Origin: Squalus acanthias
Lineage: Eukaryota
NCBI GenBank assembly: GCA_030390025.1
Contig: CM059448.1
Location: 8,742,001 to 8,806,000 of the forward strand
Direction: 5' to 3'
DNA length: 64,000 bases
In this document: positions 2,791-54,964 of the stretch, one piece after another
Numbering within the stretch: the first letter of the stretch is position 1
Layout of the letters: each line of letters opens with the position of its first letter
Made by a program: the position numbers and the translations under genes
Notes under the pieces: generated by a model
Told to the model about the DNA's origin: nothing
The model's input: only the letters and a program-made list of their open reading frames with translations
Databases searched by the model: none

Positions 2791-5129
2791 TTTTTAAGTT
2801 TAATTGCAGGAGTTAAAATATCATAGTTTTCGGGATAGACCTGTGTCAAGGAAGAAATCTAAGTCTTAGTCAAATCTCCACTGTATGGTATTGACATAGA
2901 GTATGTTGTGATGGATTTTAAAGTTCAAGTCTTCATAATCTCCAAATATGCTTGTTATAATACTTTACAGTGATTGTGTTTAATCTTGATGAATGGATGT
3001 TCTTGAAAGGTTATTTAAATGGACAGAACATGTGGCCCCTGAGAATAGTAACATTGTTCAGTATTCCCCAAACACACAAAGTGCTGGAAATGATAAATGA
3101 ACAGGGGAGTTTCTCAAAATGGCCAGTAGTAGGTGTGTATAAATTGGTACAACAACAAACCCAACACATGCTAGCATTCCATTGTTGAGATTAAGAGCTC
3201 CTGTGAGTATGTTAAAGCCTTTTCCCTTCAATGTGCAGTATATAGTTTAAGAAAACTATTGTTGGTATTCTCCCTACCATCAATTGCTGCAAGAGGTATT
3301 AACCTGAATTGATATCGGGCTTCAGAAACTGGACAAAATAAAAAGCTAGGTAATTTATATCAAGATACTTGCACTTGCAACTAGAATACAAATGTTTTGT
3401 TACTATAGTTGGAAACAATCATTAGCATTAAAATAGAAACTTGAATTTATAACTTCAGAGTGATGGAAGTGTTGTTCCTTGTTTCTTGCAAGTTTTTAAA
3501 TAGTTAATTTTTAGGGGATTTTCTGCCTGTTATTTTGTGTTCTTTACTCTCCCTTTCCACATGCTGCGTCACCTTTAACAAGAGGTAGGCAGGCAACCTG
3601 TTTCAGTCCTCTGCATGTATTGCTAGCATCTATTAGATGATGTGCAACACTTTGCTCACCGGTTTCACTCCTCTTTCTCTCCCCCTCCCCCAAAGGCTAC
3701 GGGAAAGAGTGTAGTGTAATCTGCTGTGTAGAAATAGATGTTGCACTTGTTTTGAAAATGAGACCAGTGTCTATGTTACAGAAACATTAAAATATATGGT
3801 GTAGAGTGGAATACAAACAGGCGGTTATTGACACCCAGAGCCACTAATAACTTAATTATTGTCACTAGTGTTTCTATGAAAAATAGAAAAGATTTTGATT
3901 GTGAACTACTTTAAAATTGTGTAAATAAAATAGCATAGCATAAGATGTGAGTAAGCTAAATCTCCCGGAATTGTTTTTAAAATCAAACATTTGTAAAATA
4001 TTCTCATAAATTTGTTGGAATAGTTTTATCAACTGGAACAGAGTGGGGAGGATAAATTAACATTAGTGGAGTATGAAGGCATTAATTCAGTGCTTAGCAA
4101 TTGTCATTGCAGCTGTGTCAATTCAAGTTCCTTAGTGTTGGCTCCAAGCCAGTTCCTGATGTCCTCAGCACTCACTTAGCAAAAATATTTGTTTAACAAA
4201 TCAACAAAAATACATGCAAAAATCTAAAGACAATGATTACAAATGTATTAATTTTCTTTAAACCTGTACTGATGCTGATTATCCTCCTAATATACTCTAG
4301 CAGTGTTTTCTGAATCTAAAAAATATCCAACTACTAGTAGAACTTTGTGCAATTATCTTAGTAATGGACATTGACAGCTGGTGATGAATCTACAGGGATG
4401 AAATTTAGTGACTTTGGATCATAGGAATAGAAAACATTAAGATTTAGTTTTGAGTCTATGGGGACATTAATAAGGGGTTGACTTTTAACTGGTTATCAGA
4501 CTGGAAACTGCTCCAGGACTACAGTGAAGGTTGACAATGTGAAGAGCATAATTACATTCCGCACACTGCTTTGTGCCTGCTTGTTTCTGTTTTTAAACCA
4601 GTTTTTTTGTTTTTTACGATGGAAAGCATTACACCTTAAAATGCTTAATGGCAAGTCATACCATTTTCCAGGTGTGCAGCAATATTCATATGTATGGCTA
4701 TTGTAGTAAAATAGCACAAAAACAATGAGGATGAAGGAGGAGTGGGGGGTGGGGTGGGGTGGGGGGGAGGTGGAGATCTATTAATGGACAGCCAGCATGA
4801 TTTCTCTGCACGTTTACAATTTATTTCCATTTAACCAAATTATGGGCTAGAATAGCTGACTAAGCACGTGAAAGATGCTTAATTAATAGGGTCATTTATT
4901 CTAAATTGTGGGGGAAGGGGCATTGGAATTTTGAGCTTGTGACACAAGTCGCCAATGCTATAGTTTTGAAATTTGCCCCATTTTCTTGCTCCTATGGTTT
5001 TCACTTTCACTTTGTATCTCAAATTTCTGTTGCTGTACAGTTGTGATTTTTGCATATCATATTTGATGTATTTGTATATTTTACATCTTGGTCTCCTTTT
5101 CTTCATGATCTTTGATGCTTGCACAGCTC

Positions 5130-6675: not shown

Positions 6676-9124
6676 AGACTTGTTGGCAGCAGATTTGTGC
6701 TTAGTGACCTGTTTGCTGGAATGTTGAATTAGGATATGACGACATTGATGCTTCAGTGTTTGTTACAGATTTGAATGCTTCTTACACTGATCTATTGCAT
6801 CGTGAGCTTGTCTGCTTTGCACATCTTAGTTTATTGTAAACCTGCACTGATTGCAGGTGGATTAGTGAATTTTTGACAAGGTGGCATCTACGTATCTTAC
6901 CAGAAACTTTAATTGTTTTAAGAATGTATTCATCAATGTTCATTTGGGAATCAGGTACTTGTATTGGTACTTGTATAGTTCAGTGGCACTAGTTCTAAAA
7001 CCACTGAGCAATCTGACCAATCGTTTTTTGTTAGATGATCATTAACTATAGATCATTTTGCTAGTTTAATAAAGTGTATATTGAAAAGATTTAATTCAGT
7101 CTGATGGAAAACTTTACTGGATATAATTACGCTTTTTAGCTGGTGGAAATACTGAGAGTTAACATTTCTTTCTCCCCTCGCTAGTTAGAGGATCATTTAA
7201 CCAGAACAAAAAAAAATCAGAAAATGCTTCTGCTCTTAAAGTATTGCTCAGCATTTCTGTGATTAGATTTTAATCTAAAAATGAGTCAGTGTCTAGTTTT
7301 ATGCTTTGTAGTAGGTTTTTGGAATGCAAGTGGGTCAAACCCCAATAGAATGCAGGAAGAAAATCTCCCCCTCAGTTTGAAGTGTTGAAAACTACTGAAG
7401 CCAGGCCTAGTCAGTCTCATTATTAAACTACAGAAGCATAAAAAAAGAATGGACCCTGTCAGACACCATCTGTTCAAGGCTGGTGAATTCAAACACAGGG
7501 AAATTGGGAGCACTAGACAAACACTGGTTCTTATTCCAAGCTCCAACCCCTCATTAAATTATCTAGAGACAGTAATCAGATATCTGCTGTTCAAATTAAT
7601 GGCACCTTAGAGCTCATGTCAAGAGTTTGTTAATGTGTAGCAGTTTCATGTTTAGACCACGAGTAGTGCAGGTGTCTTTCAGCTCTCATTTAATTTAAGC
7701 AGCTTTGTTGTCATGACAATTAGTTGAGACATCAGGGATATGTTATGTCAGGGATGCAAATTTTTAGAATTTTCAATCGATGTATAAAGCAACGGCCAAT
7801 TGAAGTTTCCATTAGTGCATTTTTTAAATGAATAAATTCTAGATGAATGCTTTGAGGTTTGGAGTCACTTAATATCGTGCCCATGTATAACTGTTTCAAA
7901 AATGTGATTGCTAAATTCAGTACAGATATTGTCTGAAAGGATTTCTAATTTGTTCAAACATACAACATGCTACAAGTGTATATAAAGGATTACATTTATA
8001 GAACAGATGTGAACATGTGCAACTGGGCTACTATACATAAGAGCCTGCCTCTTAACCAAGTTGTGCATTTAGAATGCCACGACTGCCTACTATTCCAGTT
8101 TAGCAGCTGGACCATTGGGTCAAACACTACGTTATGGTGGGCTTCTTCATTTGGAAGACCAAAAGCATCATAGTTTTTTGTTCATGCGGAAATGGCCCAG
8201 CAGCATTGACAGCAATCAAATCGTCCAGAAGTATAATATTGACTTATGACTGAAGGAGCCTTCAGAACTAATGGTCTGCTTTAACACTTGATAATGAAAA
8301 TTGTGTGTTTATAATGAATTTATATTGCTCTTTCATGGACTTTGCAGTTAACTAAGTTAAAACCTGGATTAGCACATGGCAAGCTCCACAGCAGCATTAA
8401 GCTGATTTACTATTGCGCCAGCTGTCCCATTCATGAAGTAAAAGCAAATGACCTGGATATCTGAAGTTGGGCATCTAAATATCTTAATATCTAAAATGAA
8501 GGTAGGTTTGTATGAAAATACTGCATTGGTAAGGTTGAAAAGGACCTTATATTAAGTGACTTGTATGGTTTCCTTTTTCAGCCATTTATAGCATTGCACA
8601 TGGTTTTCTTTTAGCCTGAAGTTATCTGTTTAAACAAAATTCCACATGCTTTGCTTTGACATTGAAAAAGAGCTTGCACGCAACGAGGCAAACCACCTTG
8701 CGTCATGCGTATTAATCCATATTAGCTTGTGTGTATATATAAACACTTGTTTCCAAAAGTGTTTCCTCTTCCCTCTTCTAAGCAGCCTTCCCATTGGTAA
8801 ATAAAAACTGGTGGATCTGCTTCTTTTGACACCAATCACACTCGGGAAGCAGATTTTTTTGGTACTGATCCGCGTTTGATCCTGTTTAATGCTACCAATT
8901 ATTGAGTTCTGTAGATAAAGTCTGTAAACTCAAATTTAGGCGCACATATTGTACCTATTGTCATATGGTTTGATTAGAAGGATTCTAATTATATTCCACT
9001 GAAGTTTCTCCCTAGACAATGTACTTCCAAGCAAAATGACTCCTTAGATAATTTGATTTTTGTTTCATAGACCCTAGTTGCCATGGGATACAATTTGTTA
9101 CTTGTTGCACTTTTTTAAATAGTT

Positions 9125-23568: not shown

Positions 23569-23778
23569 ATCTGTGACTTTGGTCTTGCCAGAGTAGAAGA
23601 ACTTGATGAGTCCCGTCACATGACCCAGGAAGTTGTCACTCAGTATTACCGAGCACCAGAGATTCTGATGGGCAGTCGCCATTATACTAATGCCATTGAT
23701 ATCTGGTCTGTAGGGTGCATCTTTGCAGAGCTTTTAGGACGTAGAATCTTATTCCAGGCTCAAAGTCCCATTCAGCAG
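23569..23778 (+). CDS. NLK: NLK internal exon (210 bp): ICDFGLARVEELDESRHMTQEVVTQYYRAPE...FQAQSPIQQ
   Basis: tgcAG 23567-68, GTaatc 23779; DFG, APE and the NLK-diagnostic TQE activation loop (instead of TxY). Confidence 0.98.
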
Positions 23779-24204
23779 GTAATCCAGCTGACTGAAGTAT
23801 ATTTTTGTCGCAGTAAAGGTGCCTTGTGTTTTAAAGGCATGGAATTCATGTGTACTGAATTGTATGCTCCACTGTTTTGTTGATAGCCGCACTTTTAGAC
23901 AGTCATTGCAAAACATTCATCTACCATTTCTTCTCGTAAGCCCCAAATGTGTAGCAGGTTTTAAGTTTAGATTAGACATGGTATTGATTCATCCCAATAG
24001 TAATTAGATTTGAACCTTTATTTGTAAACCACCTATCCGTAAAAACACTTAAGTCAATCCTACAGGTGATAATAGATGGGTGAGAGATAAAAAGAAAAAC
24101 TGGAAATGCACAGCAGGATCATCAACTTTTTTCAAAAAATAATGATTGAAACCAGTACTGTACTGAGATCTTACAAATTTGTTTGTAAATCTTACCAATG
24201 CAGT

Positions 24205-27917: not shown

Positions 27918-28019
27918 TTGGACTTAATCACAGACCTATTGGGAACTCCATCACTAGAAGCCATGCGGACAGCATGTGAAGGTGCCAAGGCTCACATACT
28001 CAGGGGTCCTCATAAGCAG
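27918..28019 (+). CDS. NLK: NLK internal exon (102 bp): LDLITDLLGTPSLEAMRTACEGAKAHILRGPHKQ
   Basis: ggcAG 27916-17, GTaaga 28020; phase 0/0. Confidence 0.96.
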
Positions 28020-29300: not shown

Positions 29301-29787
29301 GACTTTTTTTAAATGTCTAATTCTACAGGAAATAAAATTTGTTTGTGTTATGGCTGTTGCATGCTATGTTTGGATTTATGAATTTGTGCCTCAGTCCACA
29401 AAAACAGTATAAATAACATGGAGTTGCTCCATTTTATAAAGGCCTGAGCTGCAAAATTGTTAGGCTCATTATAAATTGCTGCAAATCACCTGTCATTTTC
29501 TGCAGGAATGGAAATCTCCATGTTTCGATGATTGATTTAATGCTATCCAGTTAACTGACCAAATTTAGCGAGCTATAACTTTAAGCCCTGGGAGATTGCA
29601 TTCAACTTGGATCGTGCCCATTCGAACAATGTGTTTTCTGCAGGGGCTGTAGTACAAACGGCTTTAGATGATGCACTTTTGAAAGCATTGACTTTCTCGC
29701 ATTATCACTGTACAATTGCTGGATCACTATTCCTTAACCTTTGCAAAGGCACTTTTACCTTTATTGATGAAGACAAGAATTTATTAT

Positions 29788-30015
29788 AAAAGCAAAATAC
29801 TGCGGATGCTGGAAATCTGAAATAAAAACAGAAAATGCTGGAAATACTCAGCAGGTCAGGCAGCATCTGTGGAGAGAGAAACAGCGTTAACGTTTCAGGT
29901 CGAACTGGAAAAAAAAAAGTTCTGACGAAGGGTCATTGACCTGAAACATTAACTCTGTTTCTCTCTCCACAGATGCTGCCTGACCTGAGTATTTCCAGCA
30001 TTTTCTGTTTTTATT
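29788..30015. mobile_element. Penelope-like element terminal repeat in inverted arrangement, 15-bp TSD
   Basis: TSD acaagaatttattat at 29773-29787 and 30016-30030; ~80-bp inverted arms (29821-29900 vs 29938-30015); hammerhead core inside. Confidence 0.8.
29918..29954 (+). ncRNA. Minimal type I hammerhead ribozyme motif (probably carrying one helix III mutation)
   Basis: AGTT-CTGACGA-agggtcattgacct-GAAA-catt-AACT: conserved core boxes, helix II ggtc/gacc, helix I AGTT/AACT; the inverted arm preserves GAAACGTTAAC. Confidence 0.65.
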
Positions 30016-31055
30016 ACAAGAATTTATTATGATCTATTAGTCTTCCTGTAGGACCATTTATGGTAGACAGACTTGCTTTTCTGCACACACACAGATGTCT
30101 TCATCAGTTGCAAACTATAAACTTTCAAAAAACATTATATAAAATGACCACTCCTAGTGACCTAATGAAGGTATGAACTCAGACATCCTCTTCAAAAAAA
30201 AAATACATGAGAGTGGGCAATCTGGGAGTATGCAGGACAAGTCCAGGAATTGCTCCTGTGTATTTGAGGCAAGCAAGCAAATGCATAGACTTGTTTTTTC
30301 CAAGTGTAGCAGAACAGAGGACATCTAATCCAATGACATCACAAGACTGATGTCAATCTATGTCTGCAGTGCTGTTGGAGCACCAGAGATTGGATCATTG
30401 AGATTTGGGAGTGCTGTAGACAGCACACCCTCCAAATAGTGCCCTTACTCTCCCTATGCCTTTAAATGTACCTTGCTTTCTCTTTTCACGAGTTTAAAAT
30501 TTCAACATAGTTATATGCTGACCCTAAGGTTGCCTCTTTTTGCTTTATGTACTTTTGTGCTTGGTTAAGCATTGTGGCTGGAGAGATGCAGAATATCATT
30601 GATTCTGGCTTCTTTGTTCTGTGCCTTCCAAGTGCCTTAGTAACTTCAAGGTTACTGCAGACAGACCTTCATTCAGCTACTTAGCAAATTAATTCTGCCA
30701 GCGACTTTCTCGGCCCTTAGACTTAAATTGACTTGTTGCTTATTTATTGTGACATTCAGCTGACCTCATGAGCTGCCAGTAGTATAAGAAGGTGGCATAA
30801 ATTATTGATTTGCAAATTCATCTCATCTGAATTCAAAGTTTCCAATTTCATGATTGAGTTTTTGCTACTAGAAAATCAAAGTGGCCAAATTAAAATAAGT
30901 ATTTCAAATAATTAAATATCTACTGTAGTTTTCACTGATTTATCAAATAGTTTTGGAAACTGGCATTTAATCAGAATACTAGTTACATTTAATATCCGTA
31001 TTTGTATATCCTATTATTTTGTATTTGTTTTGTAGCAGCTATATTGAACAAAGTA

Positions 31056-54440: not shown

Positions 54441-54905
54441 ACAGCAGTAGTATTTCCAATGTTCTTTTAGCTGTTCGATTCCTTTGAAACATATCAAACT
54501 GTATACATGCAAAATGTAACCACACGAACAATACATATGAGAATATTTACATCTTATGCAAACATATTTGCCCACTGCTGACACATCCTTCCAGACAAGC
54601 TGGCTGGGTGTAACTAGAGATGCAGCATGATCAACAAACCCCTCTTGAAATGTAAGAATGGTTGCTGTTTACACCGAATGCTCTAACACAGCAACCTAAT
54701 TCAATTGCAGGATCAATGGAAGCCCCTTTTTGGTGCTCAAGACCAGCTGGCTCGAGATTCCATCTTAAATTTTATAACCCCATGAAATGAAAGAGATTTT
54801 CTCATTTGTTACAGGTTTCAGTACAGGATTCAAATACTGGGTGGATGGTTTTAATTCCGCAATTTAAGCATAGATGGGTTTCTCCATCACAAATATTTAA
54901 TCCAA

Positions 54906-54964
54906 AGGCAAAATACTGCGGATGCTGGAAATCTGAAATATAAACAGAAAATGCTTGAAATACT
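54906..54964 (-). mobile_element. Penelope-like terminal fragment (same family as 29788)
   Basis: gcaaaatactgcggatgctggaaatctgaaatataaacagaaaatgcttgaaatact nearly identical to 29792-29848. Confidence 0.8.

Follow-up and report, generated by a model that had tools for sequence, protein, structure and literature searches.

Parts of the published accounts of EN+ Penelope-like elements (PLEs) describe an inverted 5'-truncated copy together with a one-sided tail of 30-40 bp (PMC8557442; Pen2a_Av in PMC3846280). How these inverted repeats and their one-sided tails arise is called an unsolved question in a section of PMC8557442. According to the main text portion of PMC4209133, minimal hammerhead ribozymes of PLEs are of type I, with a helix I of 4 bp, an extra base at position 9.1, no real helix III and palindromic positions 15.2-16.2, and form pairs on opposite strands 100-700 bp apart. 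Families of the type found here in a shark are not named in that portion; the supplements may list shark motifs. For PAc, a Poseidon element of Anolis, an excerpt of PMC11167929 reports that the PLE protein, predicted to be dimeric, cuts and extends both strands in vitro, that extension starts at two internal sites bounding the tail and that uncut RNA serves as template. A survey of non-LTR retrozymes had sampled one chondrichthyan, as given in part of its text (bioRxiv 10.64898/2026.07.22.740005). Our literature search, with subscription journals and Repbase outside its scope, yielded no paper on twin priming by PLEs, on run-off stubs or on these shark families. The layout of inverted repeats and one-sided tail is already known; an explanation by the transcript start and evidence for two templates were not found in print. 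In twin priming of LINE-1, both target nicks prime cDNA synthesis, which leads to an inversion within one target-site duplication (TSD). PLE hammerheads are said to cleave as dimers.

The window analyzed here is a stretch of 64,000 nucleotides from Squalus acanthias (contig CM059448.1). An insert of 228 bp at 29788-30015 is flanked by a perfect 15-bp direct repeat, with the left copy of the TSD at 29773..29787 and the right copy at 30016..30030. The insert consists of inverted arms with an outer pair of 34 nt (29818-29851/29985-30018, 97% identity) and an inner pair of 50 nt (29852-29901/29938-29987, 96%). Direct repeat and inverted arms had been pointed out in an initial annotation, and both were confirmed, the arms spanning 84 bp at 96-97%. 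Three substitutions and one 3-nt deletion distinguish the two arms, and the fold predicted for the insert has -141.9 kcal/mol (z = -21).

Alignment of the arms located a 33-nt tail of the Penelope-like terminal repeat on one arm only (29788..29820, minus strand). Loose-end peaks were found at 29788 and 29820/21, the two edges of this tail; we infer that its outer end marks the distal start of reverse transcription. The body of the tailed arm (29821..29903, minus strand) has kept the 3' half of a hammerhead, namely the 3' strand of helix II, GAAA, CG and TT, and has lost about 15 nt including the CTGAnGA box. The arms are joined head to head by a junction at 29904..29917 (minus strand), which, by comparison with untruncated family copies, was read as a run of A together with what is left of the sequence immediately 5' of helix I. 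The tailless arm (29918..30015, plus strand) starts with helix I, the predicted 5' end of the RNA, and ends at the proximal start site; the outer ends of the two arms lie 33 nt apart. The beginning of the parent ORF falls within this arm. Translated arms of the window match the N-terminus of the parent protein at 74-82%. An AACG variant of the left arm was rejected as a subfamily mark, as it occurred only in four loci chosen for likeness, one of them this locus, and in 0 of 222 others.

The insert is likely common to another organism with about 5% divergence in the flanks, and hence old, because contigs of that organism run from both flanks into the element. They enter it by 23-27 letters; with 31 letters set as the criterion for bridging an insertion edge, 27 and 23 letters fall short. 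An empty site was not seen in four sequence runs. Kinase exons on the plus strand (~23602-23778, 27918-28019, ~59800 and ~62300, that at 27918..28019 lying upstream of the host intron) flank the insert, which is therefore intronic. The kinase intron of the initial annotation was thus upheld; for the gene, a PDB search gave a CMGC kinase and no finer assignment, and NLK is a tentative name based on NLK-like motifs. The locus looks ordinary and the intron placement incidental. A second fragment annotated at 54906 does exist (54904..54964, minus strand); it is a separate 5'-truncated tail-end copy of 61 bp with 95% identity, an imperfect flanking repeat of 11-12 bp and no hammerhead. Weak short arm matches at 24084-24117, 7209-7228 and 3070-3091 (E 0.01-0.14) are possibly old fragments or chance.

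The minimal type I hammerhead motif is located at 29918..29954 on the plus strand and reads AGTT/AACT in helix I, followed through the motif by CTGACGA, helix II, GAAA, CA and TT, with a predicted cut site after 29950. A descriptor search confirmed the core boxes, the helix I pairing and helix II that had been noted before; it gave 14 matches in the window, and only this one formed 4 of 4 helix I pairs. At 29948 the family letter is G and this copy has A, in agreement with the CpG-type change proposed before. Among 52 positionally sampled arms, CG and TT stood at helix III in 37, CA in 5 and TG in 4. An ancestral palindromic helix III had been postulated as well, and it was found, although the relevant palindrome is ACGU at positions 15.1-16.1 and not AACGTT. 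This dimer helix III feature is broken in the present copy, which has ACAU in the place of ACGU; the computed self-duplex amounts to +2.8 kcal/mol here as compared to -3.5 kcal/mol for the intact form. Furthermore, forcing the hammerhead fold within the hairpin was computed to cost 18.8 kcal/mol. On these model values the ribozyme copy, with its helix III broken and buried in the hairpin, is probably inactive; the initial annotation had supposed it weak or inactive. Its helix III shows neutral-looking CpG decay, and its cut triplet is GUU, which is found in older copies, while the youngest subfamily has GUC. A search of Rfam with the insert did not match a hammerhead at gathering score; at E<=10 it gave no hammerhead and only generic hairpin families far under their cut-offs.

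The description of the motif as sense to the pre-mRNA proved weightless. Whichever strand is read, a head-to-head hairpin presents a sense arm; in this insert the CTGAnGA box is kept only on the plus arm. Whichever strand is transcribed, the antisense arm also comes first in the RNA, and it is predicted to mask the ribozyme. No sign of selection on the ribozyme was seen, and the motif appears to be a passenger. Directly behind the cut site and just ahead of an in-frame ATG, at 29945-29972 (plus strand), TTAAC resembles a branch point and is accompanied by a pyrimidine tract and CAG. The acceptor-like site formed by pyrimidine tract and CAG lies at ~29950-29972, and another one opens the tail; judged from these motifs, the sense repeat could act as a cryptic acceptor in host introns. 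Intronic inverted repeats can be edited by ADAR, and the hairpin here could be edited likewise.

The origin of the insert was traced through its relatives. The intact 37-mer hammerhead motif occurs 4,744 times in exact form in the genome (reversed control, 0) and a 20-nt motif of the repeat body 37,521 times. Most of the first 30 loci with the intact motif extend upstream, several by >1 kb, and there enter a reading frame that closes with a GIY-YIG domain. In a protein search 133 of 20,544 candidates were scored, many of them with an open frame of 1004 codons, the first codons of which overlap the hammerhead. Examination of 16 regions revealed units of ~3.2 kb in which pseudo-LTRs (pLTRs) with a hammerhead in each repeat enclose the ORF; the units are tandem and inverted, the tandem period is ~3.2 kb, and the repeats come with tail and TSD. 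Pfam gave RVT_1 (E=5e-5) and GIY-YIG (E=4e-4) for the parent, both under curated cut-offs, and no match for two partial ORF pieces. The parent ORF contains DKG/YTSIP/YIDD, VYCIRCSRC..YIGET and a later His pair, and its C-terminal GIY-YIG domain has the CCHH feature. At E<=1e-30 the protein has 1,607 homologues with RVT_1; no exact entry was present in the protein collection looked up.

Since the same terminal repeat flanks the 1004-codon RT and GIY-YIG frame, the insert is, by sequence comparison, a truncated product of an autonomous EN+ Penelope-like family, and the Penelope-like origin suggested earlier is borne out. The linker in front of the endonuclease reads CTRRRCNTC, i.e. CX4CxxC, and fits CX2-5CxxC, which a section of PMC8557442 gives as a Neptune feature common to Nematis. 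This motif marks the parent as a candidate of the Neptune/Nematis type rather than of the Penelope/Poseidon type. The youngest family-1 subfamily was seen at L168 (G000:C4:15.716-15.726 Mb) and L175; it has the GUC triplet and an ATG within the CUGAUGA box, its 1004-codon frames are open, three units may follow one another head to tail, and it was likely active recently. L041-L043 are three near-identical 5'-truncated copies ~70 kb apart, each followed by a ~34-bp tandem repeat, and probably form a segmental array.

A hammerhead descriptor run over 243 loci returned this family, termed family 1, in which only the hammerhead loop varies, and a second one. Family 2 has every helix swapped around the same cores (TCAC/GTGA, GGAGC/GCTCC and the palindrome AGCT). 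With identical cores and a different sequence in helix I, helix II and the palindrome alike, the comparison provides good evidence for a conserved hammerhead fold across the two families. The minimal type I hammerhead of the initial annotation is thereby substantiated, with intact cores and helices that covary between the families; a link to Penelope ORFs and covarying helices, which that annotation had set as its own test, were both found. One family-2 copy sits behind a GIY-YIG frame 37% identical to that of family 1. The genome contains at least 2,814 head-to-head hairpins of family 2, with a tail of ~35 nt and a TSD mode of 12 bp. Representative family-2 loci are L031 2896 (plus strand), L145, L068, L117 and L179, and the hairpins L244-L293.

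The initial annotation had regarded the family as non-autonomous and retrozyme-like. A retrozyme-like or MITE-like unit propagating in hairpin form, with a possible effect on the kinase pre-mRNA through self-cleavage or ADAR editing, would explain the high copy number, the stub without ORF, the core boxes intact on the strand of the gene and the strong dsRNA, and would suit an insert likely common to species ~5% diverged in the flanks. Against this stand the RT and GIY-YIG frame of 1004 codons in 3.2-kb units, stub subfamily letters that follow the autonomous subfamilies, junctions that vary with no joint common to the copies, and the absence of tandem stub arrays among the 30 + 86 + 62 copies inspected; in addition, transcription always reaches the antisense arm first, which is predicted to bury the ribozyme, and the CpG decay in helix III looks neutral. 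We therefore judge this reading very improbable, and propagation as a non-autonomous family is largely refuted by these comparisons.

An inverted terminal-repeat insertion, as named in the initial annotation, is confirmed by the TSD and the head-to-head arms of the parent's repeat. We favor, as the probable explanation, that the insert is a TSD-flanked head-to-head pair of short terminal-repeat copies which arose in a single event when both nicks primed on uncut RNA and both cDNAs ran off its 5' end. Transcription of the element would start at helix I, ~30 nt behind a TATA-like box, and the RT-endonuclease would cut the target with a stagger of ~14 nt. Priming would occur at the distal site (+135, tail included) from one nick and at the proximal site (+100) from its counterpart. 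Where the 5' copy of the internal sites is used, just 100-135 nt of template lie ahead, and both cDNAs would run off like strong-stop DNA; their ends would be trimmed and joined by microhomology or filler. The two cDNAs may sometimes be templated by two different RNA molecules, and full-length copies would require the 3' sites of a read-through or tandem RNA.

Arm ends were analyzed with the first base of helix I as coordinate 0, and all arm and hairpin samples were taken from the start of contig C1. The first 100 matches of a 20-mer yielded 90 arms after two near-duplicates, three partner arms and the last five had been left out; four further partner arms were then dropped (n=86; L166 and L167 in this sample are probably one duplicated insertion). 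The 5' ends fell at -10..+9 in 26 arms, at -60..-11 in 6 with none at -20..-11, beyond -60 in 38 and at +10..+52 in 16, and the pile-up at -10..+9 differs from a uniform distribution (26 vs 6 at -60..-11; p=9e-10). The 3' ends of the 86 copies are bimodal, near +100 and +135, and single copies end at either site. An inverted partner adjoins 28 of the 86 arms. The 18 single stubs ending near 0 have no element-like upstream sequence in common, and 8 of them show a flanking repeat of 9-14 nt. Of 60 sampled arms that by their score extend at least to helix I, only 22 keep the full motif.

The wall is accompanied by promoter-like motifs. In family 1, 94 arms have a TTAAA box at -29..-32, and the sequence at 0 fits an initiator consensus. 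In family 2, all 5 of 5 long copies show TATATA at -33..-35; of the arms from the first 50 hairpins (the pattern limits the spacer to 35), 98 of 100 stop at or inside -3. These motifs and the wall in the DNA together suggest an RNA start at helix I. A TATA box and an Inr-like TCACT are described for rotifer pLTRs in part of PMC3846280; a universal start at the hammerhead is contradicted by the Penelope promoter of D. virilis, which lacks a TATA box and is followed by an intron 46 nt downstream of the start. Other observations also weigh against the run-off model. In family 1 the wall has a width of 20 nt, and the ends of 7 of 86 arms fall at -6..-10, before the Inr-like A is reached; 38 of 86 extend beyond -60, which means that longer read-through RNAs are copied too; and 3 of 86 end at +31..+35, where a few cut templates are possible.

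Two primings with inner ends set by a block or template switch of the RT at a folded, dimerised or protein-bound hammerhead, the palindrome perhaps holding two RNAs, would place joints inside the hammerhead, where they are seen in both families, and an RNA dimer would suit arms with mixed variants. The RT, however, would meet the 3' side of the helix first (+24 to +37), whereas the ends peak at the 5' side with zero just upstream, and in both families the wall lies ~30 nt behind the TATA-like box; we regard this reading as quite unlikely. Cutting by the ribozyme was rejected as the cause of truncation. Exact family-1 hairpins with spacers of 10-40, 41-70 and 71-100 number 2,421, 471 and 120 genome-wide, many of the listed 41-70 spacers being filler and not longer arms; hairpins joined 3' of helix II number only 361, found with shorter anchors. 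Among the first 50 of these, none had a blunt join at the cut site and a few had one arm ending there. At L196 (~830-900) and G000:C5:7276682, the sequence just behind the tail, i.e. the ORF start, is fused to the start of helix I; such a fusion would be expected from a small circle or from a jump of the RT to the 5' end of a template RNA.

Hairpins were selected by patterns with limited spacer length; for family 1 the first 50 and the first 15 of two listings (65) were used and three complex ones dropped (n=62). A tailed arm faced a tailless arm in 60 of 62 hairpins of family 1 and in 49 of 50 of family 2. The TSD mode in family 1 is 14 bp, and no TSD was found in 9 of the 62. Joints differ from copy to copy. 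At the joint the tailless arm reached further 5' in 32 hairpins of family 1, the tailed arm in 22, with 8 ties; the respective numbers for family 2 were 33, 16 and 1 (n=50). Differences between partner arms (n=61) affected 8.2% of the diagnostic cells compared (38 of 465), as against 19.4% at diagnostic columns for random pairs within a subfamily and a background of 3.3%; because of this difference, most arm pairs appear to come from one source. Helix II loops of family-2 partners differed in 8 of 32 readable pairs (55% expected), in six by non-CpG changes (L246, L247, L255, L257, L273 and L278), mostly variants present in other copies. Family-1 loops differed in 5 of 36 pairs, two by known variants (L074, L076). 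A hairpin with arms of clearly different subfamilies and an extra internal copy was met twice, ~41 kb apart (L123, L124).

Self-priming by a single cDNA, which stalls or arrives at the end of the RNA, folds back on a small palindrome in the hammerhead and copies itself, with later centre deletions and arm-to-arm conversion producing diversity, has already been proposed for PLEs in a part of PMC3846280. In favor of this fold-back, the arms are mostly concordant, and some joints lie on palindromes, five of the first 50 of the 361 joins being centred exactly on AACGTT; the likeness of partners is predicted by fold-back and also by a model with one RNA. It does not readily account for a tailless arm that is often longer at the joint and ends where single copies also end, or for partner arms with different segregating variants. 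Self-copied cDNA cannot yield mixed-variant arms at birth; later conversion could, and if palindrome centres suffered deletions afterwards, arms of unequal length could result. On balance we consider fold-back unlikely, although less so than an RT block at the hammerhead.

Extended to PLE integration at large, priming at both nicks would be an obligatory two-ended process in which a protein dimer makes one cDNA per nick from fixed RNA sites, sometimes on two RNAs, and uncut transcripts starting at the hammerhead give joined run-off hairpins; to this generalization we assign an even chance. If it is true, thousands of stubs in two families map the transcription start of the element and record an integration intermediate. 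The stubs would link the published in vitro result of two internal starts, extension of both strands and uncut RNA to genomic insertions, and they point to intact young copies of the element. Genomic hammerhead counts in such genomes would mostly represent truncated stubs in which an antisense arm lies upstream and masks the ribozyme.

The second primer in LINE-1 twin priming anneals randomly in the RNA; here, in contrast, the starts are fixed and both copies span the same 5' segment. Non-LTR retrozymes, as covered by part of the survey (bioRxiv 10.64898/2026.07.22.740005), are likewise non-coding, hammerhead-bearing and PLE-derived but consist of tandem hammerhead units, whereas the shark insert is one inverted pair, flanked by a TSD of its own and joined in a way specific to the copy. 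The hammerhead agrees with the minimal form in the main text portion of PMC4209133 in its type I, 4-bp helix I, extra base at 9.1 and lack of a real helix III, and differs in that the palindrome is lost in this copy. As with PAc, the hammerhead overlaps the ORF start and two putative start sites bound the tail, and in the favored model uncut RNA is likewise copied and both strands are cut and extended; PAc is a Poseidon element and the shark family is Neptune-type by its linker, and the excerpt of PMC11167929 is silent on inverted insertions and on run-off at the RNA 5' end. The closest match is the EN+ PLE layout, with which the shark insert shares head-to-head terminal repeats, a one-sided tail (33 nt here), a TSD, the pLTR hammerhead and a parent with RT and C-terminal GIY-YIG behind a CX2-5CxxC linker. 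Unlike that layout, the shark stubs have no ORF between the arms, consist of arms of 100-135 nt, occur in thousands of copies and have inner ends that pile up at the first bases of the hammerhead.
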